The notes beneath the pieces are model-generated. The model had not been told where the DNA came from. It saw only the letters and a list, made by a program, of their open reading frames with translations, and did no database searches. This document shows, in pieces, positions 3,164 to 42,675 of a stretch of DNA of 64,000 nt. The position numbers and the translations under genes are program-made. Every line of letters begins with the position of its first letter. The stretch's first letter is position 1. The DNA comes from an uncultured cyanobacterium (GTDB lineage: Bacteria > Cyanobacteriota > Cyanobacteriia > Pseudanabaenales > Pseudanabaenaceae): NCBI GenBank assembly GCA_963703315.1, contig OY969811.1:3968001-4032000 (forward strand), read 5' to 3'.

Positions 3164-4708
3164 ATGACAAATGTTAATGGTAATCAACCAACCCCAAAAT
3201 TAGCCGCGATCGCCCCTGAAGATCTAGCTTCTAGTAATGGCTTGGATAAGCCTGCTAAGTTAGCCCCAAAAAGCGATTTCGATCAGCCTTTAGCCTTAAG
3301 TCAATCACCCAAATGGATTCCTGCAATTTTATGGACGTTAGTCGGCTCAGTGACAGTAGCGATTATTTGGGCTTCATTCGCCAAAATTGATGAGTCGGTT
3401 CCTGCTCAAGGCAAACTAGAACCACAGGGAGCCGTCAAGGAAGTGAGAATTCCTGCTAATGGTGTACTTAAAGAGGTTTTGGTGAAAGATGGTCAAAAAG
3501 TGAAAACAGGGGAGGTTTTACTACGAATTGATACAACAGTAGCCAAATCCCAACTGGAATCGTTGCAAAAATTACGCAAAAATCTTCAGCAGGAAAATCA
3601 GTTTTATCGTGAAGTACTTAATGGTAAACCATCACAAATTAATGGAGCAAAAGCGATCGCTGTCCCTGCGGAATTTTTTGCCCTAGCCCGTAACCGTGAA
3701 GCATTAATCACCGAAATGCAGCTATATCGGATGCAGGTTAATGGTGGCGGTGCAGATTTGACAGGCGATCAACAGGATCGGCTCATGGCTTCAAGGGCAG
3801 AGCTAGGATCGCGATCGCAAGCTGCGGAAGCAAATATTAATCAGTCCATTAAGCAATTAAATCAAACTCGGATTAATCGCTCAAGCAAAGAACGTGCCTT
3901 AGATATTGAGAAAGACATTCTTAAAAGAATAAAAAGCCTCTGCAAGGAAGGTGCAGCATCTGAGCTTCAATGCCTTAAGCAACAACAACTAGTTCAAACC
4001 TCTGAGGCAGAAATTCGGCAATTAGCGCAGGAGGAACAGCGAATTCAGGCAGCGATCGCAGAAGGACAGGCTCGACTGAATAATACCTTTGACATTACCC
4101 GCAAGGAATTGACTAGCCAAATTGGCGATAATACGAAACGCATTGCCGAAATCGATAGTCAATTCACTAAAGCCTTAGTGGAAAATACCAAGAAGCTGAC
4201 AGAAGTAGAAGGACAAATCAAACAAGCAGAAGTGTTATTGAAAAACCAAGAACTCATTGCCCCTGCATCAGGTACAGTGTTTGAACTCAAGGCAGGACTT
4301 GGCTATGTCGCAAATCCTAATACTGGAGAAGTGGTGCTAAAAATTGTGCCTGACGATCTGCTGGTAGCAAAAGTATTTATTAGTAATCAAGATATCGGTT
4401 TTGTCACCGAGGGCAAAGATGTGGATGTTCGCATTGATTCTTTTCCTTTCACTGAGTTTGGCGATGTTAAGGGAAAATTGATTTGGATTGGCTCCGATGC
4501 CTTGCCTCCTGATCAAGCAAATCCCACCTACAGATTCCCTGCAAAGGTGCAACTTGCAAAACAATTCCTAGATCCTAATGGGCGCAAAATCAATTTGCAA
4601 TCAGGAATGTCATTGACAGCAAATATTAAAATTCGCGATCGCACCGTAATGAGCTTATTTACAGATTTCCTCTCTAAAAATACTGATAGCCTCAAATTTG
4701 TTCGTTAG
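3164..4708 (+). CDS. hlyD: HlyD-family membrane fusion protein
   Basis: Single TM, lipoyl-like VKDGQKVKTGEVLLRID, long coiled coil, FPFTEFGDVKG motif. Confidence 0.92.
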   Translation: MTNVNGNQPTPKLAAIAPEDLASSNGLDKPAKLAPKSDFDQPLALSQSPKWIPAILWTLVGSVTVAIIWASFAKIDESVPAQGKLEPQGAVKEVRIPANGVLKEVLVKDGQKVKTGEVLLRIDTTVAKSQLESLQKLRKNLQQENQFYREVLNGKPSQINGAKAIAVPAEFFALARNREALITEMQLYRMQVNGGGADLTGDQQDRLMASRAELGSRSQAAEANINQSIKQLNQTRINRSSKERALDIEKDILKRIKSLCKEGAASELQCLKQQQLVQTSEAEIRQLAQEEQRIQAAIAEGQARLNNTFDITRKELTSQIGDNTKRIAEIDSQFTKALVENTKKLTEVEGQIKQAEVLLKNQELIAPASGTVFELKAGLGYVANPNTGEVVLKIVPDDLLVAKVFISNQDIGFVTEGKDVDVRIDSFPFTEFGDVKGKLIWIGSDALPPDQANPTYRFPAKVQLAKQFLDPNGRKINLQSGMSLTANIKIRDRTVMSLFTDFLSKNTDSLKFVR

Positions 4709-4804
4709 TTTTGAGATTATTAGGATTTATAGCTGTAGTCAGTTATGTCTTAACTTGCTTGGCTATGGCTATACGCAAAAACGTTTTGAAAACAACATTT
4801 CATT

Positions 4805-4834
4805 GTAGGGGACAATTCATAAGTTGTCCCCTAC
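4805..4834. repeat. GTAG-type REP-like palindrome
   Basis: GTAGGGGACAAT-TCATAA-GTTGTCCCCTAC. Confidence 0.6.
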
Positions 4835-4842
4835 ATTTTTAT

Positions 4843-4937
4843 GGTTAACTTTGGTTTAAAAAAAGATAATTGTTAGGTTAAAAAATAAATAAGCTTTAGT
4901 ATAAATTTGGTTAAAAAACTAATTCTAATCAAGTTAA
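4843..4937. promoter_or_regulatory. Possible Pho/SphR box array
   Basis: GGTTAA/GTTTAA at 4843, 4854, 4876 and 4909 (multiples of 11 bp; TTAACC on minus strand) upstream of a phosphatase gene. Confidence 0.4.
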
Positions 4938-5041
4938 TAGATCAATGTATTTAGAAATACCTATATTTCCTGAAAAATTATGGCAAACTGCAAATTAGTA
5001 AGATTTTTATGTATTTCGCTAGATAGTTCTCAAACAAATTT

Positions 5042-7255
5042 ATGGCAACCCTTTCCTTCGATACAACTCAACCTGCTCAACTTCAAGGTTTAGGTGGTTA
5101 CACAGTTGACCCAATCTTTACAGTTGGCGATAAGATTGGAGATTACGTTCCTGCTGGTATCCTTGATGGTATTGGTGCTTACTCCCTTAATGACACAACT
5201 GTTCGCTTATTAGTTGTTAATGAAGTAGGTAGTACCGATGGCTATAAATACAGCCTTGCAAATGGTACACAGCTCTCTGGTGCTAGAGTTAACTACTTTG
5301 ATGTTGACAAGCGTACATTCCAAATAGTCGATGCTGGACTAGCCCACAACACAATTATTAATCGCGCAGGTGAAGTTGTTGATGCTGCTTCTGATTTGGA
5401 ATTTGGTGGTATTCAACGCTTCTGCTCTGCGGCTTTGTTTGAAGCAAACCAGTTTGGAGAGGATATCGGTTTAGCCGATCGCATCTTCTTCAGTGGTGAA
5501 GAAACTAATGGCGGTACACAATTTGCCTTAGATACAGCTACTAATACCCTGTATGCCGTTCCCGCATTCGGTCGTGCAGGATGGGAGAATGTCACCGAAA
5601 TCAATACAGGAAGCACCGACAAAGTTGCTTTTATTGTTGGTGATGATCGTAGCAATGCTCCATTACTTCTCTATGTTGGCGACAAGAATGCCAAAAATGA
5701 CGGCAGTTTCCTAGATCGTAATGGATTGGCACAGGGCAAGTTATTTGTTTGGGTGGCTGACGATCCTAATAGTGCTAGTGATCTCATTGAGCGTAGTGCT
5801 AGTGAATTTAGTGGTAGTGGTAATAGCACCAATGGCAAATTCGTCGAAATCGCTTACTACAATCCTGCTTTGGCAAATACTAGTGGCTATGATGCTCAAG
5901 GTTTTGCCACCCAAGCTAAACAGGATGAATTAGCTAACGCTGCTGGTGCATTCAAGTTCTCTCGTCCTGAAGATGTTGCCACCAATCCTTTTGATGGAAC
6001 TCAAGTTGTATTAGCTTCCACTGGTGTGGCGAATACGTCAGATGTATGGGGTACAACTTACAAAATTGATGTTGATTTTAATAACATCAACACAGGCAAT
6101 ATCACTGCCAAAATTGACATTCTTTACGATGGTAACGAAGCTGGTAAACAAGATTTTGGATTGCGTAGCCCTGACAATCTAACTTGGGCTAACGATGGCA
6201 AGATCTACATTCAAGAAGATCGGGCGATCGGAGCCGATCTTTTTGGTGCAACATCAAAGCAGGAAGCTTCTATCTTTGTTCTTGATCCTTTTGCGGCTGA
6301 CCCTGCGGCAAGCGTTACTCGTATTGCTCAAATTAATCGCTCCGCCGTACCTTCTGGTCAAACCGACTCTAGCCCAACTGACCTCGGCAACTGGGAAAGC
6401 TCTGGTATCCTTGATGTCTCTACTCTGTTTGGCAATAAACCAGGTACACTTTTTATCACTGATACCCAAGCTCACAGTCTTCGTAATGGAACAATCATTA
6501 CTGCTACCAACATTGATGGCAATGGTGATGGCATCAAAACCAGACAAGAAAATCTTGTGGAAGGCGGTCAACTCGCATTCTTGATTGCGCCTAATGCTAA
6601 CCTTGTCCAAAATCCCTCTTCTGTGGTCGGTACTGCTGGTGCTGACAAGTTCACAGCTGGTGTCACCAAAGGTTTTGATGGTACTAATGATATCGTCTCC
6701 ACTGGTGCTGGTAACGACAGAGTTGATAGCTCTAGAGGTTTTGGTAACAACCTCATTGACACTGGAAGTGGAGATGACAAAATCATTTTGGCTAATGGAG
6801 ATCGCGTTTTTGCTGGCTTAGGTAAAGACGAGGTAAATGCCGTAAATGCTAGCAATTACTCTATTGATGGTGGTGCAGGAAATGACACATTTTTCCTAGG
6901 TGCTAGTGGAACTGTCTTGGGTGGTGATGGCAACGATAGCTTCTTTGCTACTACTGGTGATGACATCTTCTTTGAGCCTACTGGTGCTGGCAACTTGCTA
7001 TATGGTGGTGCTGGTGCTGATAAGTTCTGGCTCTTCAATGGTGAAGCTGCATCTAGCCCAATCACGATCGCTGATTTCCAAGTTGGCACAGATGTAATTG
7101 GTTTCATTGGTGTAGGCAAAGGAACCTTTTCTCAATTGACTCTTTCTGGAAATACCATTAGTTTTGATGGTGAGACGATCGCCACCTTAACTGGAATTGA
7201 TACTTCCACCTTGACTGCCAATAGCTTTAAGTTCGTCAAGAATTTTGAAGCTTAA
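5042..7255 (+). CDS. PhoX/DUF839-like alkaline phosphatase with C-terminal RTX Ca-binding repeats
   Basis: RFCS, GR..WEN, RPED, SPDNL, IQED, WESSG motifs; GGAGND and GGDGND nonapeptides; no N-terminal signal peptide. Confidence 0.8.
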   Translation: MATLSFDTTQPAQLQGLGGYTVDPIFTVGDKIGDYVPAGILDGIGAYSLNDTTVRLLVVNEVGSTDGYKYSLANGTQLSGARVNYFDVDKRTFQIVDAGLAHNTIINRAGEVVDAASDLEFGGIQRFCSAALFEANQFGEDIGLADRIFFSGEETNGGTQFALDTATNTLYAVPAFGRAGWENVTEINTGSTDKVAFIVGDDRSNAPLLLYVGDKNAKNDGSFLDRNGLAQGKLFVWVADDPNSASDLIERSASEFSGSGNSTNGKFVEIAYYNPALANTSGYDAQGFATQAKQDELANAAGAFKFSRPEDVATNPFDGTQVVLASTGVANTSDVWGTTYKIDVDFNNINTGNITAKIDILYDGNEAGKQDFGLRSPDNLTWANDGKIYIQEDRAIGADLFGATSKQEASIFVLDPFAADPAASVTRIAQINRSAVPSGQTDSSPTDLGNWESSGILDVSTLFGNKPGTLFITDTQAHSLRNGTIITATNIDGNGDGIKTRQENLVEGGQLAFLIAPNANLVQNPSSVVGTAGADKFTAGVTKGFDGTNDIVSTGAGNDRVDSSRGFGNNLIDTGSGDDKIILANGDRVFAGLGKDEVNAVNASNYSIDGGAGNDTFFLGASGTVLGGDGNDSFFATTGDDIFFEPTGAGNLLYGGAGADKFWLFNGEAASSPITIADFQVGTDVIGFIGVGKGTFSQLTLSGNTISFDGETIATLTGIDTSTLTANSFKFVKNFEA

Positions 7256-7278
7256 TTAATTTCGTCTGTTTTACAGCG

Positions 7279-7331
7279 CAAAAGCAGAGCTTGTGCCGCC
7301 CGCGTAGCGGGCGGCACAAGCTCTGCTTTTG
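7279..7331. repeat. Perfect palindrome, core of MITE family B; probable terminator
   Basis: CAAAAGCAGAGCTTGTGCCGCCCGC-GTA-GCGGGCGGCACAAGCTCTGCTTTTG; same core in the 30391, 45669 and 58340 elements. Confidence 0.8.
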
Positions 7332-7402
7332 GCTTATTTACTTAGCAAGAAATGGGTGGCTCAAGGAGCGAACAGTTGATACATTGAGAATAAATCTGTG
7401 TA

Positions 7403-8296
7403 TTGGTTAGTATGAACCCATCGATAGAAACTACCCTAGATGAGAATATGGGCGATCTCGCAACCTATGAACTGATGGCAAAAGCGATCGCCTTTATTCG
7501 TCAAAACCATCGACAACAGCCAGATCTCGCCGCGATCGCGCAACAAGTCCATCTGAGTGAATATCACTTTCAGCGCTTGTTTACTAAATGGGCAGGGATT
7601 AGCCCCAAGCGATTTTTACAATATCTGACGGTGGAATATGCTAAGTCCAAAATTGCGGAAACAAAGAACTTGCTGGAATTGACTGGAGATGTGGGTTTAT
7701 CCAGTGCAGGGCGATTGCATGATCTATTTGTGAACCTTGAAGCAATGTCACCACAAGAGTTTAAAACTGGTGGTAAAGGTTTACAGATTTGGTATGGCAT
7801 CCATGAAACGATGTTTGGTGATTGCCTGATTGCCACGACAGAGCGAGGTATTTGTAATTTGTATTTTCTGGATGGAATGGATAATCAAGCTGCCGCATTA
7901 ATGCTAAGAGAGGAATGGTCAAAGGCGGAAATTATTTGCGATCGCCAAATTACCCAACCAATTTGCGATCGCCTATTTAGCCATCTTCCTAATCTGAATC
8001 CTGATAGCCAACCAACCCTTACACTCTATGTCAAAGGCACTAACTTCCAAATTCAAGTCTGGCGAGCCTTGCTGCGAATTCCCTTTGGTGGGATTACCAC
8101 TTATCAGGACTTAGGGCGATCGCTTGGTCGTCCCAAGTCAGCCAGAGCGATCGGTAATGCCGTTGGTAGCAATCCCATTAGTTACATCATTCCCTGTCAT
8201 CGCGTCATTCGGGAATCAGGAGAATTAGGCGGCTATCGTTGGGGATTGGAGCGTAAAACAGCAATACTAGGCTGGGAAGCTAGCTATCAAAATTAG
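7403..8296 (+). CDS. Ada-like AraC HTH / O6-methylguanine-DNA methyltransferase
   Basis: HLSEYHFQRLFTKWAGISPK HTH; IPCHRV active site; true start may be ATG 7412 or later. Confidence 0.9.
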   Translation: MVSMNPSIETTLDENMGDLATYELMAKAIAFIRQNHRQQPDLAAIAQQVHLSEYHFQRLFTKWAGISPKRFLQYLTVEYAKSKIAETKNLLELTGDVGLSSAGRLHDLFVNLEAMSPQEFKTGGKGLQIWYGIHETMFGDCLIATTERGICNLYFLDGMDNQAAALMLREEWSKAEIICDRQITQPICDRLFSHLPNLNPDSQPTLTLYVKGTNFQIQVWRALLRIPFGGITTYQDLGRSLGRPKSARAIGNAVGSNPISYIIPCHRVIRESGELGGYRWGLERKTAILGWEASYQN

Positions 8297-8390: not shown

Positions 8391-8807
8391 ATGGCAGCTA
8401 AAGATAGATTTCATGCTGTAGTTAGACTTGCTCTGGAAAAGGAGCAGTGGAATATAACTGACGATCCGCTACGGCTGGAAGTCGGTGGAACTAAGCTTGA
8501 AATTGATTTAGGTGCGGAGCAATTGCTAGCAGCAGAAAGAGGCACAGAAAAAATTGCTATTGAAATAAAGACCTTTTTGAGTGATTCTCCACTGACGGAT
8601 TATCATGCTGCTTTGGGACAATTTTTGAATTATCGACTTGCCTTAGAAATTATTGATTCAACTCGCATTCTATATTTAGCAGTTCCTGTGGGTGCTTATG
8701 AAGCTTTTTTTAAGCGTGAATTTGCACAAATTTCATTAGAAAGATATCAGATTAAACTAATCATTTACGACCCAATTCAAGAGGTGATTGTCCAATGGAT
8801 ACCATAG
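8391..8807 (+). CDS. xisH: XisH family protein
   Basis: MAAKD.FH..V..ALEK..W.IT.DP, IDLGAE, IAIEIK, ALGQFLNY. Confidence 0.93.
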   Translation: MAAKDRFHAVVRLALEKEQWNITDDPLRLEVGGTKLEIDLGAEQLLAAERGTEKIAIEIKTFLSDSPLTDYHAALGQFLNYRLALEIIDSTRILYLAVPVGAYEAFFKREFAQISLERYQIKLIIYDPIQEVIVQWIP

Positions 8808-15822: not shown

Positions 15823-16896
15823 TTGTATATAGCGCCAACGAAAGCAAAATTTGCGGACATGATTTCTGCCCCATCTAAATTACAGCAAAAATTCGCTGAA
15901 CCTTTAACTATTGGCAATGTGATCCTCAAAAGTCGGGTGTTGCAATCGCCATTGTCGGGGGTGACAGATTTGGTGTTTCGGCGTTTGGTACGGCGCTATG
16001 CCCCAGATTCAATGCTCTATACAGAGATGATCAGCGCTACGGATCTGCATTATCTCAAGGCTTTACCCAAGTTAATGGAGATCGATCGCCACGAAACACC
16101 GATCAGTATTCAATTATTTGATTGTCGTCCTGATTTTTTGGCAGAGGCAGCGCAAAAGGCGGTACTAGAGGGAGCCGACACCGTAGACATTAATATGGGT
16201 TGCCCTGTTAATAAGATCACCAAAAAAGGTGGCGGCTCATCGTTATTACGTCAGCCTGAACTGGCGGCGCAAATTGTGAGATCAGTGGTTGAGGCTGTTG
16301 ATATTCCTGTGACTGTGAAAACGCGCATCGGTTGGGATGATGCCGAAATTACGATCTTGGACTTTGCGAAACGCATGGAGGATGCGGGAGCCAAGATGAT
16401 CACTGTTCATGCGCGAACGCGATCGCAGGGCTATACAGGTAACGCTAAGTGGGAATGGATTCGTAAAGTTAAAGAGGTGCTGACGATACCTGTAATCGCC
16501 AATGGTGATATTTTTTCAGTGGAAAATGCGATCGCCTGTTTAGAGCAAACGGGAGCCGACGGGGTGATGTGTTCGCGTGGCACATTGGGCTATCCCTTTT
16601 TGGTGGGGCAGGTTGATCATTTTTTAAAAACTGGTGAATACTTGCCAGAGCCGACCGTAATTGAATGTTTAGAAGTTGCCAAAGAACATTTACAAGGGCT
16701 ATGGGATTACAAAGGGATGCGCGGTATCAGTCAATCACGAAAACACATGACTTGGTACGCGAGGGGTTTTGCAGGAGCGGCGGTGTTGCGCGATCGCCTC
16801 TGTCGGATTGAGTCCTTGCAAGATGGAATGGATTGTCTCGATGGGGCGATCGAGGAGTTGCAGGTTCTTGTTCGTCAATCCAAGCTAATCCACTAA
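15823..16896 (+). CDS. dusB: tRNA-dihydrouridine synthase B
   Basis: INMGCP, VTVKTRIGW, VHART, ANGDI; likely start at ATG 15859. Confidence 0.93.
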   Translation: MYIAPTKAKFADMISAPSKLQQKFAEPLTIGNVILKSRVLQSPLSGVTDLVFRRLVRRYAPDSMLYTEMISATDLHYLKALPKLMEIDRHETPISIQLFDCRPDFLAEAAQKAVLEGADTVDINMGCPVNKITKKGGGSSLLRQPELAAQIVRSVVEAVDIPVTVKTRIGWDDAEITILDFAKRMEDAGAKMITVHARTRSQGYTGNAKWEWIRKVKEVLTIPVIANGDIFSVENAIACLEQTGADGVMCSRGTLGYPFLVGQVDHFLKTGEYLPEPTVIECLEVAKEHLQGLWDYKGMRGISQSRKHMTWYARGFAGAAVLRDRLCRIESLQDGMDCLDGAIEELQVLVRQSKLIH

Positions 16897-16972
16897 TGTT
16901 GTCAGTTGCTTTGCCTTCTACGTTAGTGACGTAACGAATAAGGTTTTCAATTTGGGCGATCGGCATGGCGTT

Positions 16973-17805
16973 AAACTTCACAACGCAGGGACAATTTATC
17001 GGTGAAGGCGAAAAGGGTTTAAATTAAAGACCAGTAGGGGCAAAGCATTCCCACCGCAATCTATCAATTTCTAAACCATTTTAATTCGGGAATGCTTTGC
17101 CCTAAACCTCGCAACGCAGGGACAATTTATCGGTAAAAGCGAAGAGGGTTTAAATTAAAGACCAGTAGGGGCATAGCATTCCCACCGCAATCTATCGATT
17201 TCTAAACCATTTTAATTTGGGAATGCTATGCCCAAAACCTCACAACGCAGGGACAAGCGATCGGTGAAGGCGAAGAGGGTTTAAATTAAAGACCAGTAGG
17301 GGCATAGCATTCCCGCCACAATCTATCAATTTCTAAACCATTTTAATTCGGGAATGCTATGCCCAAAATCTCACAACGCAGGGACAATTTATCGGTGAAA
17401 GCGAAGAGGGTTTAAATTAAAGACCAGTAGGGGCAAAGCATTCCCGCCACAATCTATCAATTTCTAAACCATTTTAATTCGGGAATGCTCTGCCCAAAAC
17501 CTCGCAACGCAGGGACAATTTATCGGTAAAAGCGAAAAGGGTTTAAATTAAAGACCAGTAGGGGCAAAGCATTCCCGCCACAATCTATCAATTTCTAAAC
17601 CATTTTAATTCGGGAATGCTCTGCCCAAAATCTCACAACGCAGGGACAATTTATCGGTAAAAGCGAAGAGGGTTTAAATTAAAGACCAGTAGGGGCAAAG
17701 CATTCCCGCCCCAATCTATCAATTTCTAAACCATTTTAATTCGGGAATGCTATGCCCAAAACTTCGCAACGCAGGGACAATTTATCGATAAAAGCGAAGA
17801 GGGTT
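16973..17805. repeat. Tandem array of 131-bp units (6 full + 1 partial), each with a GTAG-led hairpin
   Basis: CAACGCAGGG starts at 16981, 17112, 17243, 17374, 17505, 17636, 17767; arms GGGCAWAGCATTCCC / GGGAATGCTNTGCCC. Confidence 0.97.
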
Positions 17806-17869
17806 CAGCATTTGCGTTTTGAGATTGTATTGGAGAATAAAAATATTGGCGCAAATGCTAAACCCCTAC
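17801..17869 (-). repeat. Oppositely oriented REP-like hairpin capping the array
   Basis: GGGTTCAGCATTTGCG ... CGCAAATGCTAAACCC-CTAC (GTAG on minus strand). Confidence 0.7.
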
Positions 17870-17898
17870 AGTTTTTACATTTTCTATCTTGTTGATTT

Positions 17899-20376
17899 CT
17901 AATTGCCCCAAATTCTATTCAACACAGTTTGAATCTTTTTCTCAAATCTCTCGATTAGTTCACGGTTAGCATTAACAAGAGATTGCTCGGCTTCGATTTC
18001 AGCAACTATTGCTTTTTGGGTTTCAATCGCTGGAACTGGAATCTTTACTTCAAATAATTGAGAGCGATTAATTTTTGGAATACTTGCTCTCTCATAATAA
18101 CCACGAATCCTCTCATTAAAAGCATTTGAAAGCATATATGTAGATAGATATGTGATGTCAATTTTGGAGCTATCAGGTACTAATGGGTACATATCAGAAC
18201 TACAATAGCCACGCATATTAACAACAGACAATTTATTGAGATAAGGACGGATTTTGCTGTATAGCAAACGTTCACCAGAAAACTCATAAACTGGTCCACT
18301 TACTCTCTGGCTTTCGGCTGTTTCTATTTTTAGTAACTTTCCTGTGTTTGATTCGATACTGTCAGCACCGAAGTACGGAAGTGAAGCATCTATGTTTACA
18401 TTAGGGGTAATTGCTGCACCAAGTGTGCAGATTTTACCAAGCTCTACCATTTCCCAATCAGGAGAGATCGCTATATGAGGTCGATAATTATCAATGACAG
18501 CACGAGCGCCGTTGATGACTTTTTGGTAGCCTTCGATTTCGGTGACTATTTCTTTTTGGATAGCGATCGGTGGCAAAGGGATTTGCACACCTCGAACAAT
18601 TTCACTGTTCAGATTATTGACGACTCCACCTGTTGCAGAACGCTTAAATTGTTGAAACACAAAATCTGAGCCAAGAATGAGATAGAAAAAATCTTGATCT
18701 ATCTGTTCAGACTGATTTCGCAATAGAAGCCATCCGTCATGAATACATCCATCAATAGCCATAATATAAGGTCTTCCAAAACTCATTGAGTTAGAAAGAA
18801 TAAAATCACCCTTTTTTACAGCACGGGATTTTTTAGCACCTTCTGGAATGATGCGTTCTTTAGTTTTAGTAATGTATTTTGAGCCTACTTCTGCATCTCC
18901 AATCTTGATCCAATTTATACCGTCAGGTGAATCAGTAATAAAATCATGAATTGGTCTAGGAGATCCCCCTCTTTCTATAGTGCAAATCTCACCAATTGAA
19001 ATTAGAGGATAGCTTAAACTAGCGTTAGCTGCTACATCTCGATATCTCTCCCCACTCAAATTATATTCACCATTAGCCGCAATCCTAGACTTCGGCACAA
19101 CCAAAACCCGATCATCATTCGCAATTCCTAATTCGTAATTCGTAATTGACAATTCGTAATTCGTAATTTGCTCCAACACAAAAGGCAAATCATCCCCCTC
19201 AACCGCCCGCCTTTGAGCGCCCAAACCGAATCCATCATTCTCGACCTTAAAAAATGCAATCTTATCCGTCTTCTTCGCCAAAGACTTATCCAAGATTAAA
19301 ATCGAAGTCTTCACCCCAGAATACGGATTAAAAACCCCAGCAGGAAGCGAAATCACCGCCACCAGCGAATTCTCAACCAACATCTTCCGCAAATCCTTAT
19401 AAGCAGTCTGACTCTGGAAAATAATCCCCTCAGGCACAATAATCCCCGCCCTACCCCTAGGCGAAAGATGTTCCGCCATATAGTCCACAAATAGAACCTC
19501 ACTCCGCTTCGCCTGAATCGAAAACCGCTTATGGGGCTTAATCCCACCCTTCGGCGACATAAACGGCGGATTTGCAAGGATCACATCCGCAAACTCATTC
19601 CACTTATCCTCAGAAGTCAACGTATCGTACTCAGCAATTTGCGGACTCTTAAAACCATGCAAATAGAGATTTACCAACGACAACCGCACCATATCAGGCG
19701 AAATATCATAACCTCTAAAATTAGTCGCCATCAGCCCCTTCTCATCAGGCGTAAGCGTACTATTCCCCTGAGCATCCAGATTAGACCGCAAAATATGCTT
19801 ATACGCCGAAATCAAAAAACCCGCCGTACCACAAGCAGGATCGAGAATCACCTCACCCTTTTGCGGACGCAAAACCTCCACCATAAAATCAATAATATGG
19901 CGCGGCGTGCGGAACTGCCCCGCATCCCCCTGCGAACCCAACACCGACAGCAAATACTCAAACGCATCCCCCAACCGTTCCGAATGATCGTAGGTAAACC
20001 CATCAATCACCTTCAAGAAACTCTTCAGCGTCTCAGGATCGCGATAGGGAAGATACGCATTCTTAAAAATATCTCGAAACAACGCAGGAATCCCCGCATT
20101 CTGCGGCATCGTGCTAATCCCCTCACTGTAAAGGCTCAGCAACTCATGACCGCCCACCGTCGGACTCATCAACCGTCCCCAACCAAACTTCGCAAACTCA
20201 CCCGCAAAAAAACTGCGATCGCCCCCCAACTCCTCCACCTCCGCATCCATATCATCCATAAACTTATAGATGAGAGCGATCGTAATCTGTTCCACTTGCG
20301 ACTTCGGATCAGGAACCTTCCCCACCAAAATGTCACGAGCAGTATCAATACGGCGTTTAGTTTCAGAATCAAGCAT
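17899..20376 (-). CDS. Type I R-M fused methyltransferase-specificity subunit (HsdM-HsdS)
   Basis: GQFRTPRH, DPACGTAGF, ANPPF (m6A MTase); two TRDs each followed by a P...Q..IV helix. Confidence 0.92.
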   Translation of the reverse strand: MLDSETKRRIDTARDILVGKVPDPKSQVEQITIALIYKFMDDMDAEVEELGGDRSFFAGEFAKFGWGRLMSPTVGGHELLSLYSEGISTMPQNAGIPALFRDIFKNAYLPYRDPETLKSFLKVIDGFTYDHSERLGDAFEYLLSVLGSQGDAGQFRTPRHIIDFMVEVLRPQKGEVILDPACGTAGFLISAYKHILRSNLDAQGNSTLTPDEKGLMATNFRGYDISPDMVRLSLVNLYLHGFKSPQIAEYDTLTSEDKWNEFADVILANPPFMSPKGGIKPHKRFSIQAKRSEVLFVDYMAEHLSPRGRAGIIVPEGIIFQSQTAYKDLRKMLVENSLVAVISLPAGVFNPYSGVKTSILILDKSLAKKTDKIAFFKVENDGFGLGAQRRAVEGDDLPFVLEQITNYELSITNYELGIANDDRVLVVPKSRIAANGEYNLSGERYRDVAANASLSYPLISIGEICTIERGGSPRPIHDFITDSPDGINWIKIGDAEVGSKYITKTKERIIPEGAKKSRAVKKGDFILSNSMSFGRPYIMAIDGCIHDGWLLLRNQSEQIDQDFFYLILGSDFVFQQFKRSATGGVVNNLNSEIVRGVQIPLPPIAIQKEIVTEIEGYQKVINGARAVIDNYRPHIAISPDWEMVELGKICTLGAAITPNVNIDASLPYFGADSIESNTGKLLKIETAESQRVSGPVYEFSGERLLYSKIRPYLNKLSVVNMRGYCSSDMYPLVPDSSKIDITYLSTYMLSNAFNERIRGYYERASIPKINRSQLFEVKIPVPAIETQKAIVAEIEAEQSLVNANRELIERFEKKIQTVLNRIWGN
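19130..19169. repeat. AATTCGT heptamer repeats inside hsdM-S coding sequence
   Basis: AATTCGTAATTCGTAATTGACAATTCGTAATTCGTAATT, translated as ITNYELSITNYEL. Confidence 0.85.
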
Positions 20377-35884: not shown

Positions 35885-37108
35885 ATGTTTCGTCTTATCA
35901 AAAAATGGTTTCGCAAATCGAGAACAGTTAACAACGAGCCAATCAATAAGGTCAGCTTGATTGTTATTATCTTGATTGATATTTTTATCTTAATCAATGT
36001 TTTTACGGGATTGGCTGATATCAGTCGCTGGTACATGAGTCCTTCGCTTGCCTATCCATGCTATTCCGAATGGCAAAACTACCAAGATCAGACTACAAAA
36101 GAGAAAAATTACGAATTTATTAGACAGACATTGCTGGATCGTCAAGGCGATCGCTCAACGGTGCAGCAAAATTATCAAGCAAATGGCAGAGGTCGTCTAG
36201 GCAGTGTTTCCGCAACTTGTATAAAGTATGCAAGTTACGAAGATCAGATTAACAAGCCGCAAAATCAACAAATCATTAAAACTATCAGTCAGCAACAAGG
36301 CGAGATTGATAATCTTAAGCGAGCTAACGCTAATATTCGCGCCGAATATGATTCAACGCTATTAGAAAAAATTGCTAATCAGCCAGAAAATCAGTCGATC
36401 AATCAAGTTGCTTCTGATAAAGCCAAACAACAGTTAGAGCAGAACAATCAGAAAATTGCGACTTTTGAACAAGAAATTGCTAAGGCAAAACAAGAAGTCG
36501 TCACAAAACCAGAAAGTGTCAGTTTTATTGCCTTTCTGCAAGACCGAGGTGTATTTAGTGAAGTTGCATCAGGTTATTCACAGGCAAGTTTTTGGTATCC
36601 CAGCATTCAATTTGCTTTTCAGGCACTTTTTCTTTTACCGCTCATCTTGATTGCTCTACTAGTTCACAAATTCGCTCAGCGCAAGCAATATGGATTGATT
36701 GCCTTAATAAGCTGGCATCTTCTAGTTATCTTTTTGATTCCCCTGATATTGAAAGTTTTTGAGTTCTTACAAGTAGGCTTAGTCTTTCAATTTCTCCGCG
36801 ATCTTTTTCGAGTTCTCTTTGGCGGACTGCTTTTCTTAATTAGTTATCTCTATATTTTACTAATTCCAGTATTTGGTTTTGTAATGATCCAATTCTTTCA
36901 AAGAGTTGTGTTTAACCCCAAAATCCAAGCTGCTAATCGATTGCAAAAGTCTTCTTGTATCAATTGTGCCAAGAGAATTCGGAATCATGATATTCACTGT
37001 CCACACTGTGGTTATCATCAGTATATTGAATGTCCTAACTGCCACAATTCTACTTATAAGAATTTATCGTTCTGTAGCCATTGTGGACATCCTCAAGATG
37101 CTTTATAA
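35885..37108 (+). CDS. Membrane protein with coiled coil and C-terminal double zinc ribbon
   Basis: TM segments; CINC, CPHCG, CPNC, CSHCG. Confidence 0.75.
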   Translation: MFRLIKKWFRKSRTVNNEPINKVSLIVIILIDIFILINVFTGLADISRWYMSPSLAYPCYSEWQNYQDQTTKEKNYEFIRQTLLDRQGDRSTVQQNYQANGRGRLGSVSATCIKYASYEDQINKPQNQQIIKTISQQQGEIDNLKRANANIRAEYDSTLLEKIANQPENQSINQVASDKAKQQLEQNNQKIATFEQEIAKAKQEVVTKPESVSFIAFLQDRGVFSEVASGYSQASFWYPSIQFAFQALFLLPLILIALLVHKFAQRKQYGLIALISWHLLVIFLIPLILKVFEFLQVGLVFQFLRDLFRVLFGGLLFLISYLYILLIPVFGFVMIQFFQRVVFNPKIQAANRLQKSSCINCAKRIRNHDIHCPHCGYHQYIECPNCHNSTYKNLSFCSHCGHPQDAL

Positions 37109-37149
37109 AAAATAAGGACGGCGCTTCGCGCCGTCCTTATTTTTTATAG
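37104..37149. terminator. Bidirectional terminator
   Basis: TATAAAAAATAAGGACGGCGC-TTC-GCGCCGTCCTTATTTTTTATA between convergent genes. Confidence 0.8.
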
Positions 37150-39489
37150 AGTATGTCCCATTCGTTTAGGGATTGCCTCATTAAAGTTTTTGGTAATTTG
37201 CGATAGAGATACAGCGATCGCTTGTTCTCCATTTACCGCAATCTCCAAATCACTACCCGCATCGCTGACGCTACCGATATATTGCCAAGAATTGCCTAGC
37301 TGATTATTAAGATAAGCTTCCCATGCAGAGCGATCGCTTGCCTTAACAGAAACAACAATCCGACTTGCGCCTTCTCCAAAGAGAAGTTGGGTAATGTGTA
37401 AATTTTCAGGAAGAGTTATTTGAATCTTGGCGGTGAGTTTGCCAGAGATACTTGATTCGGCGATCGCTACAGCTAGACCACCTTCCGCACAATCATGGGC
37501 AGATTGAATCAAGCCTTGGGCAATTCCTTGACGACAGGCAAGCTGCACTTTGCGCTCCAATTCAAAATCAACGGGTTGGGGTCTGCCTGTAACTTCACCA
37601 ATAACTGAGGCAAGATATTCAGAACCTGCGAGACTAGCGCGATCGCTACCCAATAAATAAATCGCATCACCCACATTTTGCCAAGCCTGACCAACGACCT
37701 TAGTTACATCTTCAACTAAGCCGACCATGCCGATTACAGGCGTAGGATAGATTGGTTGGGCATTGCCCTCAGCGTCAATAGTTTCGTTATAGAGCGAGAC
37801 ATTACCACCCGTCACAGGAGTGGATAATTCCCGACAAGCATCAGCGATGCCGCGACAGGCTTCGTGCAGTTGCCAATAACCGATCGCATTTTCAGGACTA
37901 CCAAAGTTCAAGTTATCCGTAACAGAAATAGGATCGGAACCAACACAGGAGAGATTTCTAGCAGCTTCCGCAACCGCTAACTTTGCGCCTTCATAGGGAT
38001 CAAGATAGACATAGCGAGCATTACAGTCAACCGTAGCGGCAACCCCCGCAAGGGCATCAATTTGGCATTGAGCGGAACTTAACTCTCCAGCACCAAAACC
38101 TTGACTGCGTAACCGAATTACCGCCGCGTCCGCACCACCGGGGAAAAGCACCGTATTATTCTGAACTTGATGATCGTACTGGCGATAGACCCATGCTTTG
38201 GAGGCGATCGCTGGGGTATCAAGTAATTTCAATAGCGCATCATTGGGATTAATCACAGGGAAAGAGGCGATCGCGGTTTTCTCATCCCATGCCCAAGCTT
38301 GCTTGGCATAGTCGGGAGTGTCAGCTAACTGACGATGATAAATCGGTGTATTATCGGCAAGCGCCGTTGCAGGAATCTCTGCCGCAATTTCGCCATGCCA
38401 GAGAATACGGACAATTGGCTCTTCCAGAACTTCACCCGCCACCACCGCATGAAGTCCCCACCGTTCAAAAATTTCAATTAGTTCTGCTTCTCTCCCTTTA
38501 TGAGCCACAAATAACATCCGTTCCTGTGATTCCGAAAGGAGATACTCATAGGGAGTCATCCCTGTTTCCCGCGCAGGAATTTTGTCCAAATCGAGAGATA
38601 CACCCACGCCGCCCTTCGCTGCCATTTCCGAAGTGGAACAGGTTAAACCTGCTGCGCCCATGTCTTGCGCGGCAACAACTGCACCAGTTTTGAAAGCTTC
38701 TAAACAAGCTTCCACTAAAGACTTCTCTAAGAATGGATCGCCAACCTGTACCGCTGAGCGATTCTGTTCCGATTTGCCAGAAATTTCTGTGCTAGCAAAA
38801 CTTGCGCCTTTGATGCCATCGCGCCCAGTGGTCGAACCCACATAAATCACAGGGTTTCCCACACCCGCAGCACCCGATTTGACGATTTCTTTGGTTTCCA
38901 TAATCCCGATTGCCATCGCATTGACTAGCGGATTACGGTTATAGGCTTTATCAAAATACACTTCGCCGCCAACGGTGGGAACGCCGATACAGTTGCCATA
39001 GCCAGCGATGCCGTTAACAATGCCGTTAACCCGACTACGCACCCAAGGATCGGACAGTTCGCCAAACCTTAGTGAATTCAAAATCGCCACGGGACGCGCT
39101 CCCATCGTGAAAATATCACGCAAAATGCCACCCACACCTGTCGCTGCGCCTTGGTATGGCTCTACTGCCGAAGGACGGTTATGGCTTTCAATCTTAAAAC
39201 TAATGGCAATATCATCGGTAATCTTGACTACGCCCGCATTTTCCCCCGGTCCCACCAGAATGCGATCGCCTGTGGTCGGAAATTGCTTCAGCAGGGGACG
39301 CGAATTTTTGTAGCAGCAATGCTCTGACCACATCACGCCAAACATCCCCAATTCGGCTTTGTTTGGTTCACGATTGAGGCGATCGCAAATCATTTGATAT
39401 TCATCGAGCGTCAAACCCTCAGATTTAATTTCGGCTGGGGAAAATTTGGGTGTGGTACTGGCGGTCATATTTAAAGCGGTGACTATCAT
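37144..39489 (-). CDS. purL: Phosphoribosylformylglycinamidine synthase subunit PurL
   Basis: [38 protein letters not shown]. Confidence 0.97.
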
Positions 39490-39616
39490 TGGCTTGCAAC
39501 AATCATCTTATCGCAACACCATATTTTTTTGTCGTAGTGCGGTAGTCAGCTTCTTTGCAGATTTTGGCTCATCCGTTAAGATGTAAACAATAACCCGCAC
39601 TTAAGTTAAAAATGTC

Positions 39617-40831
39617 ATGTCCGATCGCCTGAAATTTTTCCGCAGGCTGATGTCAGCTTTTGAAGGCACTTCAAATCCTCAACGTGCCGTTGAACGAGGA
39701 TTTTATGTCAACTTGCCAAATAGTCCTGTAGAAGTGATCACCCGTAGAATTGAGCTTAGTCCTTCTTCGGTTCATTTATTATTTGGCGGTATTGGATCGG
39801 GGAAAACAACGCAGTTGCTACTAACACAAAAACATTTAAATGAGTTAGAAGATATAAAAGCTATTTATGTGGATGTTAGTCTTGTCACCGATATTTCCAA
39901 TCTTCAGTCTAGTGCTTTAATTGTGATTGCTGGACTGGAGCTAATAAAAATATTAGAGAAAATTGATAACCCTGAAATAGAAAAATCCAAACAAACAATT
40001 AAAAATGCTGCATATGGATACAGCGAGACAAAAATCGTTAACACGGCTTTTTCCTCGGTAGTTGCTAATCTGGTTAGTGGGTCTGTAAATACTTTTCACA
40101 AAGGATTATTGTCCTCAGAAAAGCAGGAAAATAAAGAGTTAATTTTAAAAGCTTTTGTTGAATTAAAAAAAGCTGCTAAAGCAATCATAAACAAAGAAAT
40201 TATTTTTCTTTTCGATAGTCTAGATAGATTGAGTAACTCAGAAATCTTTGTTGATTCAGTTCTTGACGATGTAATTGAAATTAACAATAGTGAAGTTGGA
40301 TCTGTTCTCGTAGGTTCTATTGCAACAATGTATGAAGAGAGAGATAGTATTGCAGAAGTTGTAGGACATTCTCACTTCTTGCCATATCTTGATATATTTG
40401 AAAATGTTGCCGCCCGTAAAGTTTTTACAGATATTTTTGCCATTCGAGATCCTGAAAAATTTATTAGTCTAGAGGCAAGAAATATACTAATGTATAGTTC
40501 TGGAGGGGTTTTACGCGATCTAATGTCTCTTTGCCAAGCTGCAATTGAAGAAGCTTATGTAGATGGTTCAGATCAAATTACAGAACAACACGCGAATCAA
40601 GCAATTTTAGCTATACGCCGTTCAAAACTAATTGGTTTAACCGATTCAAGCATAAATGTGCTACGTAAAGTTATGACTGAAAAATCATTTTCTCCACGGA
40701 CATCTGAGGATTTTGAACTATTGCTAACAGGACATATCTTGGAGTATAGACATCCAAGACAACGGTTTGTTGTTCATCCGATATTAGCTCCACTTATCAA
40801 AAATATGGCTGTGAGTGTAGCTAATGGATAA
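39617..40831 (+). CDS. P-loop ATPase (AAA/STAND-like)
   Basis: Walker A GGIGSGKTT, Walker B IIFLFDSLD, SGGVLRD helix. Confidence 0.85.
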   Translation: MSDRLKFFRRLMSAFEGTSNPQRAVERGFYVNLPNSPVEVITRRIELSPSSVHLLFGGIGSGKTTQLLLTQKHLNELEDIKAIYVDVSLVTDISNLQSSALIVIAGLELIKILEKIDNPEIEKSKQTIKNAAYGYSETKIVNTAFSSVVANLVSGSVNTFHKGLLSSEKQENKELILKAFVELKKAAKAIINKEIIFLFDSLDRLSNSEIFVDSVLDDVIEINNSEVGSVLVGSIATMYEERDSIAEVVGHSHFLPYLDIFENVAARKVFTDIFAIRDPEKFISLEARNILMYSSGGVLRDLMSLCQAAIEEAYVDGSDQITEQHANQAILAIRRSKLIGLTDSSINVLRKVMTEKSFSPRTSEDFELLLTGHILEYRHPRQRFVVHPILAPLIKNMAVSVANG

Positions 40832-41423
40832 ACTATCCTCTGTAGATGAATTATTACAAAAAATTGAACTGCGACCGCCAGATAGTAATAGCTGGATGGT
40901 TCTAGTCGCTATGCCTGATGACATACAATCAACAATTGATGAGTTACAAGACAGTGTTGAGATTTTTGGTGAATGTGAAACAGTAACTATTTCAGGAGAA
41001 TCTGGAGCAAGAAATCTAATTAAATGTATTCAAGAAGCACCTCAAGAATACTTTTTACTACATCAACTTGACTCTTGGGATAATAACGAATGGAAAATTT
41101 TTGATGCTTTTAGAACTCAATTAGATAAAAATACAAATGGGGGCTTGGTTGTACTTTCCGATCAATCAAGCCATTTAATGTTTAGTAATGCTCCTCATTT
41201 TGTTAGCTTTGTGGGTTCACGATTATATTATTTGGATAACAATGCAAATGTACTCACTTCTGAAGAATGTGAGAAACGCTTGTCTGCATTACAAGAATGG
41301 TCTGGTCAAACCAATGAAGAAATAATAGCTTTGGCTGAGAATCGTCAACTACCAACTGACCCAGAGTATGGAGAATGGTTAATCTTACTTGATCGAGGTG
41401 ACTTGCTTGAAAGGCAAAAATAA
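40824..41423 (+). CDS. Hypothetical protein, possibly an inactive NTPase-like partner
   Basis: 199 aa, 8-bp overlap with ATPase; FDAFR...NAPHFVSF. Confidence 0.7.
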   Translation: MDKLSSVDELLQKIELRPPDSNSWMVLVAMPDDIQSTIDELQDSVEIFGECETVTISGESGARNLIKCIQEAPQEYFLLHQLDSWDNNEWKIFDAFRTQLDKNTNGGLVVLSDQSSHLMFSNAPHFVSFVGSRLYYLDNNANVLTSEECEKRLSALQEWSGQTNEEIIALAENRQLPTDPEYGEWLILLDRGDLLERQK

Positions 41424-41973
41424 TTGGGAGAAGATCTGTAAAGAAATCCAAGAGCGTTCTTTAAACCAGACACTACTAGAAGTAGAAAGTGCGGAGAAAT
41501 TAAGAAAGAAAATTTTTAAATGTTTGAATGATGCCACCAATGAAAAGATATTGAATACGAATCTAAGTGAGATTCATCAGTTGCTTAAGATAAGTAATGG
41601 TCAAAAAGGACATTATGAAATTTTTGGTGGAGGCAAGAACTTTGGACGTATTCAAGACATTCCTCATTTCAAACTTCATAATGGCTGCTGGTTTGATTTT
41701 GCAATCACTGTCGATGAAACTGGCAAATCTTCCCAAATCGTGGCATTTGACTTTGAAATAAGGTTCCCTCAAAAAGAAAGTGAGACTAAAGTTTCATTTT
41801 TAAGAATTGACCTCAATCGACCAGAGCATAACAACGATGAACGAAATATACGTTTTCATCTCCATCCCAGCAATGACGATATTATGATTCATAGTCCACC
41901 AATGTCACCTCTCGAAATTCTGCATATGTTTCTGTATGGCATGAACATTCCAGACAAACCACGCACTTCTTAA
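41389..41973 (+). CDS. Hypothetical protein with RID..H..HLHP motif
   Basis: 194 aa ORF overlapping the upstream gene; start uncertain (TTG 41389 or GTG 41398). Confidence 0.7.
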   Translation: MIEVTCLKGKNNWEKICKEIQERSLNQTLLEVESAEKLRKKIFKCLNDATNEKILNTNLSEIHQLLKISNGQKGHYEIFGGGKNFGRIQDIPHFKLHNGCWFDFAITVDETGKSSQIVAFDFEIRFPQKESETKVSFLRIDLNRPEHNNDERNIRFHLHPSNDDIMIHSPPMSPLEILHMFLYGMNIPDKPRTS

Positions 41974-42069
41974 AACATCCTCAACTCTGCTTTGTTGGGT
42001 TCACGATTTAGGTGATCGCAAATTATCTGATCACGATCTTATCGCATTGAACCCGCCTAAAATGATTTC

Positions 42070-42675
42070 ATGTTGTCCAAAAGGAGATCAACTTTTATGA
42101 CCTTACAACTACTTGATCAAAGCGCGATCGCCTCACACTTTAAATTCACAACCCAGCAATATCACCTCATGCATGAAGCTGGCGTTTTTAAAGATGGCGA
42201 TCGCCTTGAGTTGATTAATGGAGAAATTAAAACTATGTCCCCCATTGGCAGAAAACACGTTGCTTGCATTATTCGCCTCGACAAACTGATCCAACAAAAA
42301 CTAGGCGATCGCGTGATGGTTTCAACGCAAAATTCAATTCGCTTAAATGAGCATTCAGAACCCCAGCCCGATCTTGCGATCTTGAAATTTCGTGATGATT
42401 TTTATGAAGCAGGGTTGCCAACACCAGAGGATATTTTGTTAATTATTGAAGTTGCGGATAGTTCACTTGATTATGACCGTGATGTGAAAGCACCTCTGTA
42501 TGCAGTGGCGGGGATTCCTGAAATGTGGTTATTTGATGTCAACAAAAAAGCGATCGCAGGATATTCTCAACCATCAGCATTAGGTTACAAACAAATCCAT
42601 CGCTACGATGAAGGCGATAGGTTATCGATGCTTGCTTTTCCTGATGTTACTTTCAATTGGAATGAGCTTTTCTAG
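42070..42675 (+). CDS. Uma2 family endonuclease
   Basis: RLELING, SEPQPDL, IEVADSS, YA.AGIPEMW. Confidence 0.92.
   Translation: MLSKRRSTFMTLQLLDQSAIASHFKFTTQQYHLMHEAGVFKDGDRLELINGEIKTMSPIGRKHVACIIRLDKLIQQKLGDRVMVSTQNSIRLNEHSEPQPDLAILKFRDDFYEAGLPTPEDILLIIEVADSSLDYDRDVKAPLYAVAGIPEMWLFDVNKKAIAGYSQPSALGYKQIHRYDEGDRLSMLAFPDVTFNWNELF

Follow-up and report, generated by a model that had tools for sequence, protein, structure and literature searches.

A mobile three-gene cassette at the purL locus of a Pseudanabaena relative, a candidate cyanobacterial defence module combining an AAA+ ATPase, an inactive AAA+ partner and a probably DUF2290-related protein

A 64,000-nucleotide stretch from the genome of an uncultured member of the Pseudanabaenaceae (contig OY969811.1, positions 3,968,001 to 4,032,000; hereafter the window) carries, next to purL and divergent from it, a cassette of three overlapping plus-strand open reading frames (ORFs) at window positions 39617-41973, designated g1, g2 and g3. 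The cassette is a foreign insertion in this genome (4.57 Mb, a single contig; close relatives in Pseudanabaena), and the same three genes recur in the same order in many other bacteria, cyanobacteria and beyond. Whatever the roles of the individual proteins, we consider it probable that the cassette is a defence module. The reading that we prefer assigns these roles: a self-contained, horizontally moving three-gene conflict module, most likely directed against phages or plasmids, in which g1 would be the switch, a catalytically dead g2 the relay and g3 the effector. For this particular wiring we see an even chance.

The three ORFs encode proteins of 404 (g1, 39617-40831), 199 (g2, 40824-41423) and 194 residues (g3, 41389-41973), with an overlap of 8 nt between g1 and g2 and of 35 nt between g2 and g3. 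In the database version, g3 of the window has 188 residues, which implies a start at 41407. These coordinates match a preliminary description of the same DNA, made from the sequence without database searches, which had reported three overlapping ORFs on one strand, divergent from purL, in AT-rich DNA devoid of the highly iterated palindrome HIP1. The base composition agreed as well. The GC content is 35.6% in the cassette and 42.5% in the window; in sliding windows it is 0.32-0.38 over the cassette versus 0.47-0.51 over purL, and at third codon positions 0.23, 0.22 and 0.34 in g1, g2 and g3 versus 0.42 in purL. HIP1 (GCGATCGC) occurs 127 times in the window versus ~0.9 copies expected by chance, and a count over the window found no site from 39386 to 42124. 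This gap measures 2745 bp; two others in the window exceed it, so that on its own it is suggestive, not unique. The two longer ones, at 16790-20215 (3425 bp, GC 0.43) and 4635-7484 (2849 bp, GC 0.42), may be other foreign or unusual segments.

The insertion is seen directly by comparison with a congener. In G007, purL directly adjoins a divergent Uma2-family gene. Because G007 keeps this empty site, the cassette is foreign in the window genome; together with the low GC content and the depletion of HIP1, this bears out the foreign origin first proposed from the sequence. As aligned with the empty site at both junctions, the cassette-specific DNA at purL extends from ~39516 to the stop codon of g3 at 41973 (2.46 kb) and is flanked by a direct repeat of ~175 bp derived from the 5' end of purL. 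The left copy (39340-39515, ending in ATCTTATCGCA), delimited by alignment with G007, comprises codons 1 to ~50 and ~26 bp upstream; it is part of the working purL, a core gene for FGAM synthase II (37144-39489, minus strand, a 781-aa ORF, 91-97% identical to its congeners) that marks the insertion hotspot. The right copy, detected at 41973-42031 and assigned to 41974-42046 (ending in GATCTTATCGCA), is a displaced remnant of the purL 5' end on the minus strand, covering residues ~29-50; it was found by tblastn, and DNA alignment places an internal deletion of ~100 bp in it. In four congeners, the remnant still encodes residues 2-50. Beyond it lies the Uma2-family gene (42070-42675, plus strand), which matches Pfam PF05685 (E 1.3e-31) and the PADLOC candidate PDC-S03 (E 6e-13).

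The duplication of the purL 5' end recurs in the genus. A 181-bp repeat segment gave at least two matches in 17 of 48 genomes, with both copies on one contig in 11 of the 17. The copies were 2.64-2.68 kb apart in four of these 11 genomes (equal to the three-gene cassette), 3.44-3.54 kb apart in six and 1.02 kb apart in one. In Pseudanabaena biceps O153 (L027) the order is purL-Uma2-purL'-cassette, as against purL-cassette-purL'-Uma2 in the window, where purL' denotes the remnant; hotspot loci were seen also at L014 and L016. purL is thus a hotspot of the genus, since different cargos (~1.0, 2.65 and 3.5 kb) alternate between strains, each bounded by a duplicated piece of the purL 5' end. None of the purL cargos encodes a recognisable recombinase, and the cargos may have moved by Campbell-type recombination through purL homology. 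The 3.4-kb cargo of G006 (L014:1405-4601, minus strand) encodes a 923-aa protein and a 141-aa protein, neither of which matched Pfam. The larger one contains two P-loops, of which KGGVGRTT is ParA-like and GAKGAGKT is the second, and matches the PADLOC candidate PDC-M28B (E 2.3e-15) and a ParA-like PHROG (E 2e-4).

The cassette is not confined to purL. Within the Pseudanabaenaceae it occupies at least three sites: purL, between lspA and sufB, and beside a kinase-like gene. Across sites it is bounded by a conserved block of ~50-80 bp upstream of g1 (39550-39616, plus strand, in the window; kept among cassettes at the purL, lspA and kinase sites) and by the stop codon of g3. At six sites other than purL we found no terminal inverted repeats or short target duplications, only short and probably chance pairs of direct repeats, with one exception. 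In L029 (Pseudanabaena biceps PCC 7429), the 32-nt start of g1 including ATGTCCGATCGCCTG (6190-6221) is repeated just after the g3 stop codon (8594-8625); this repeat could be what is left of another cassette in tandem, or else a place where recombination occurs. Within the upstream block, two hexamers separated by 17 nt, TTTGCA (39554-39559) and TAAGAT (39577-39582), were picked by eye as a possible promoter; a scan for consensus promoters and terminators found nothing upstream of g1 or after g3, and the eye-picked hexamers scored below its threshold.

The three genes travel together. In the genus, a strong match to g1 was present in 8 of 25 genomes, and g2 and g3 followed g1 in all six loci with enough flanking sequence. 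Employing a g3 profile against species-representative genomes, we obtained 62 loci, all cyanobacterial, spanning Nostocales, Oscillatoriales, Chroococcales, Pleurocapsa, Acaryochloris, Chamaesiphon and others. At least 1950 bp was available upstream of g3 in 53 of them; 49 of the 53 showed the order g1-g2-g3 on one strand, and the remaining four were truncated g3 remnants. Four of the 49 complete loci had a disrupted g3. Among 1.84 billion representatives, the g3 profile matched 291 clusters (50% identity) at E<=1e-3, one of which came from an alphaproteobacterial metagenome-assembled genome. A metagenome scan, with an alignment of six distant g3 members as the query, returned 80 loci with GC contents of 0.32-0.78 (median 0.67); the three genes stood in order in all 30 loci with room for them, and g2 was present in 24 of the 27 with room for g2 only. 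The preliminary description had made its proposal depend on the genes occurring together elsewhere, and they do so in cyanobacteria and metagenomes alike. No conserved fourth gene was found in either set of neighbourhoods.

The foreign composition and uneven evolution of the cassette are also general. The GC content was below that of the flanks in 52 of 52 cassettes, and HIP1 density was 0.35 per kb in these cassettes versus 1.13 per kb in the flanks, a depletion of ~3-fold. Of 401 genomes sampled from the phylum, 10 carried a member of the g3 family, several copies having stop codons or truncations. Divergence is mosaic: between the window genome (G000) and G002/G017, g2 is 93-95% identical, g1 ~60% and purL 91-97%; within the genus, g3 is 68-80% identical. 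Only broken or truncated cassettes were left at L076, L062, L070, L078 and L082 and in G369 and G089, including a Trichormus azollae record; the damage consisted of stop codons, a missing g2 or, in L082, an insertion of ~1 kb inside g3. In the RNA libraries of two studies (metatranscriptomes of freshwater and ice), some contigs contain fragments of all three genes from close relatives, 90-99% identical to the window (39200-42300) and at low depth; because these are contigs, DNA carry-over is possible and they give no evidence of an expression level.

That g1 is a P-loop ATPase, as proposed from the sequence, is upheld by its relatives. The Walker A motif (GGIGSGKTT, residues 57-65) is intact in every relative compared, 27 from cyanobacteria and 31 from metagenomes. 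Walker B contains D200/D203, and a GGVLRD motif (296-301) contains R300; these three residues are invariant among relatives. The GGVLRD motif resembles, as we take it, the sensor-2 of ORC/Cdc6 proteins. Pfam matches among 27 relatives were to ATPase_2 (21), KAP_NTPase (14), AAA_22 (12) and AAA_16 (7), all below curated cut-offs; for ATPase_2 the best E value was 1.1e-6, and g1 of the window scored 20.7 bits versus a cut-off of 33.2. Weak matches among the relatives included AAA_16, NACHT, NB-ARC and NPHP3_N, and no helicase model of Pfam was matched by g1. Identity is 78% over residues 1-110, 32% over 111-195 and 9% over 141-160; residues 111-195 form a hypervariable insert whose length ranges from 81 to 158 aa among relatives. 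The C-terminal end is winged-helix-like. These motifs point to g1 as a putative ORC/Cdc6-STAND-type AAA+ ATPase with an active-looking site.

g2 had been described as a degenerate NTPase-like protein with an R...AP.F.S motif, and the motif (R97...A123-P124-x-F-x-S128) is indeed conserved. Its C-terminal part is helical, with a nearly invariant tail, LPTDPEYGEWLILLDRGDL. Pfam gave no match for g2. Its predicted model, with a predicted local distance difference test (pLDDT) score of 83.8, is that of an AAA+ module, having the alpha/beta core and helical lid of that fold; a Foldseek search with the model returned 39 matches at E<=1e-3, including Hda, RuvB, DnaA, RFC subunits, DnaC, IstB, Rif2 and LAP1. 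A Walker A motif (GxxxxGK[ST]) was found in none of 35 cyanobacterial and none of 43 metagenome relatives (78 in total). As judged from the model and these alignments, g2 is a catalytically dead AAA+ protein without a P-loop. Comparison of g1 with g2 by hhalign gave an E value of 0.12, so paralogy of the two is not established.

The predicted model of g3 (pLDDT 93.9) is an alpha/beta structure of unassigned fold that starts with three helices, continues with an antiparallel sheet and closes with a C-terminal helix. The His-rich site noted in the preliminary description is real: the motif FLRxDLN...RFHxHP is conserved, and so are its His, Arg and Asp positions. Over 61 relatives, L46, R139, H157 and H159 are invariant, and a conservation of at least 90% is reached by further positions, including R87, D98, E123, D141, N143, N149, R155, D164, P174 and E176. 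Because charged and His positions alternate on neighbouring strands of the model (D103, E123/R125, R139/D141 and R155/H157/H159), the conserved residues probably form an active or ligand-binding site. We do not claim a new fold for g3.

Several comparisons point from g3 to DUF2290. By language-model features, the named cluster nearest to g3 was DUF2290, with a score of 0.91. In hhalign against six cyanobacterial DUF2290 proteins, the broad g3 alignment gave an E value of 0.037, and the most divergent g3 subgroup gave 0.0015 over 84 columns against cyanobacterial DUF2290; the aligned segments were DGA, the RFD strand, the His of (R/K)CHL and RIP..SP. When the DUF2290 hidden Markov model (HMM) was run against 4317 ORFs, its best sub-threshold matches were g3 proteins; in turn, DUF2290 ORFs were among the first matches of the g3 HMM outside its own family. 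None of 63 distant g3 relatives matched any Pfam family, PF10053 included, and neither g3 of the window nor four distant relatives matched the PADLOC DUF2290 models. Genuine cyanobacterial DUF2290 genes adjoin UvrD-like helicases (UvrD_C_2), and the PADLOC models recognise them with E values of 1e-105 and 1e-205; the negative result for g3 is therefore not a failure of the tool. Judging from these sequence comparisons, a distant common origin of g3 and DUF2290 is likely but not established. Genuine Helicase+DUF2290 pairs were found in 11 of 301 phylum genomes sampled (L084-L093); their helicase-like gene encodes ~390-440 aa and covers the C-terminal two thirds of the PADLOC helicase model.

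In the mechanism that we propose, g1 would act as a minimal ORC/Cdc6-STAND-type AAA+ nucleotide switch, whose hypervariable insert and winged-helix end would detect a cue from the invader, be it DNA or protein. g2, a dead, paralogue-like AAA+ partner, would co-assemble with g1 in the manner of the dead subunits of clamp loaders, ORC and BrxC/BrxB, and would couple the nucleotide state of g1 to g3. g3 would be an effector of the DUF2290 superfamily, with an invariant Arg/His/Asp/Glu cluster on one face of its beta-sheet, and its activity would stop the invader or the infected cell; hydrolysis of nucleic acids or nucleotides is a guess. Formation of the complex, its trigger, the chemistry of g3 and a defence phenotype are what we infer. 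A conflict module is the best reading of the strict synteny, the overlapping frames, the mobility, the mosaic and fast evolution, the dead g2 and the link to DUF2290. The other occupants of the hotspot are consistent with it, another purL cargo matching PDC-M28B and the Uma2 gene PDC-S03.

Among known systems, the nearest to g3 is the Rst Helicase+DUF2290 pair, which protected E. coli against T7 (Rousset et al. 2022, PMC9122126) and is counted among the systems in PMC10952713. In the accessible portions of the literature on Helicase+DUF2290, we found no mechanism or chemistry for DUF2290. The cassette likewise has an NTPase gene followed by one for a protein of ~200 aa, and g3 can be aligned with DUF2290 proteins of cyanobacteria across the core of the sheet. 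Unlike that pair, its NTPase component is an AAA+ pair rather than a UvrD-like superfamily 1 (SF1) helicase, it has an extra dead-ATPase gene (g2), and g3 fails the PF10053 and PADLOC DUF2290 models. Membership in Rst Helicase+DUF2290 is ruled out by the lack of a PF10053 or PADLOC match for g3 and of a helicase match for g1.

For g1 and g2, a close architectural parallel is BrxC/BrxB of BREX. According to PMC12839542, BrxC is an ORC/Cdc6 AAA+ ATPase with a winged helix-turn-helix, and BrxB is an inactive STAND-like protein of ~200 aa without Walker motifs. By analogy, g1 would be a winged-helix-type ORC/Cdc6 AAA+ protein paired with an inactive partner of ~200 aa. However, g1 is one third the size of BrxC, and no PglX methyltransferase, PglZ or BrxA/L is encoded nearby, the surrounding ORFs being purL, Uma2 and core genes. 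BREX membership is ruled out by the absence of BrxB/BrxC matches for g1 and g2 in PADLOC and Pfam and of PglX/PglZ in the locus. An inactive STAND-like partner is also described for the iSTAND ternary systems (Kaur et al. 2020, PMC7159879). The cassette shares with STAND/Avs-type NTPases and iSTAND systems a nucleotide-driven switch, a fast-evolving recognition element and an inactive STAND-like partner, but g1 lacks TPR, WD40 or other sensor repeats and a fused effector, and the cassette has no MoxR-vWA pair and keeps its effector, of unassigned fold, as a separate gene.

Dead subunits occur in heteromeric AAA+ assemblies such as the clamp loader (delta'), ORC, Rif2 and TorsinA-LAP1. The model of g2 superposes on the AAA+ modules of these assemblies and likewise has no P-loop, but g2 does not belong to any of them at the sequence level. 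In such an assembly, R97 of g2 could complete the site of a neighbouring subunit. The preliminary description had been unable to assign the cassette to a named system; PADLOC and Pfam gave no convincing match either. We file it as an NTPase with a DUF2290-like protein, or as an AAA+ switch with a separate effector, that is a member of no named system. In the openly accessible literature searched, the trio was not described.

Several results weigh against the conflict reading. PADLOC v2.0.0, Pfam, NCBIfam and PHROGs gave no above-threshold match for g1, g2 or g3; the best PADLOC scores were PifA (E 3.4e-4) and PtuA (7.9e-4) for g1, none for g2, and SIR2 (3.8e-3, over a helical stretch) for g3. 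Searches of the PDB with profiles of the three proteins likewise found nothing meaningful. The structure search proposed in the preliminary description gave an AAA+ module for g2, but no informative match for g3: the best hit of the g3 model in the PDB by Foldseek had an E value of 0.38, and BFVD returned none. The alignments of g3 with DUF2290 had hhalign probabilities of 1.4% and 17%, below conventional significance; PF10053 matched g3 at no E<=10, nor any of 31 close relatives, and nothing in the window genome matched PF10053, versus 11 positives among 301 phylum genomes. The neighbourhoods consist mostly of housekeeping genes. Of 121 nearest-neighbour ORFs at 32 loci, 12 matched PADLOC at E<=1e-8. 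A role in defence is credible for ~3 of them, namely a Uma2/PDC-S03 gene, one for an Mrr-type enzyme and one for an HNH-helicase; the other nine matches were generic, being repeats, a radical SAM enzyme, an ABC ATPase, a methyltransferase and a cyclic-nucleotide (cNMP)-binding protein. With ~3 credible genes in 121, the enrichment in defence islands that was first envisaged is weak. Finally, tblastn with g3 and a high-GC relative found no match among 72,556 plasmids and 50,697 phage records, and profile scans of IMG/VR with alignments of close and distant g3 members found no relative.

These points leave room for other explanations, the nearest of which keeps defence and changes the wiring: g3 would be a sensor or ligand-binding adaptor, and the AAA+ pair would give the output, for example by remodelling or blocking replication of invader DNA through the ORC/Cdc6-like g1. 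It would suit a g3 model without a recognisable catalytic fold, and winged-helix ORC/Cdc6-type ATPases act directly on DNA, BrxC being so described in PMC12839542. The location of the fastest-evolving segment cuts both ways. It lies in g1, though g3 varies too; a hypervariable element in g1 is not what a sensor role for g3 would lead one to expect, and the top-conserved positions of g3 are charged or His residues on adjacent strands, a pattern that one expects of an active site rather than a variable sensor. We regard this arrangement as unlikely. The same low probability applies to a selfish module for maintenance or mobility, that is, an addiction (toxin-antitoxin-like) cassette, or a self-moving set in which AAA+ proteins like TnsC/IstB would be the regulators and g3 a novel enzyme that breaks and joins DNA. 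Such a module could explain the occupation of several unrelated sites with no integrase or transposase adjoining and the sharp limits (~80 bp before g1 on one side, the stop codon of g3 on the other), and the g2 model does resemble TnsC and IstB, among many other AAA+ proteins. On the other hand, the six non-purL sites lack the inverted repeats and target duplications of a self-moving element, and no copy was found on the plasmids or phages searched. Moreover, the same repeat of the purL 5' end borders unrelated cargos at purL (Uma2, and the pair of 923 and 141 aa), and so the hotspot mechanism is independent of g1-g2-g3.

An accessory cellular function outside conflict, such as a niche-specific DNA-transaction or stress module, seems to us more improbable still. 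Every copy found is chromosomal, mostly among housekeeping genes, and RNA-library contigs of two studies carry parts of close relatives, all of which would fit a cellular role; but the distribution is patchy with pseudogenised copies, and the variable location, foreign composition and mosaic, fast evolution are atypical of housekeeping genes.

A broader proposal can be made only tentatively, as somewhat less than an even prospect: that the cassette represents a widespread undescribed defence family in which an ORC/Cdc6-STAND-like AAA+ protein and its dead partner control a DUF2290-superfamily effector, with the Pseudanabaena cassettes shuffled at purL by recombination that duplicates the gene's 5' end without a cassette-encoded recombinase. 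If this is true, the orphan DUF2290-type effector fold could be coupled either to a helicase or to an AAA+ pair, two NTPase engines unrelated to each other. Phage defence in cyanobacteria is poorly charted; if the trio is a defence system, it would add a compact 2.4-kb, phylum-spanning module to the catalogue, offer a first handle on the DUF2290-like effector class and provide a clean model of a dead AAA+ subunit gating an effector. purL would then be a swap site at which different candidate defence cargos alternate between closely related strains.

On the other side of purL, downstream of the gene, the window contains a 407-aa ORF (35885-37108, plus strand) in a region of 34-39% GC. The encoded protein combines hydrophobic stretches of a membrane-like kind and a coiled segment rich in Gln and Asn with a double zinc ribbon at its C terminus (PF12773, E 4e-6).

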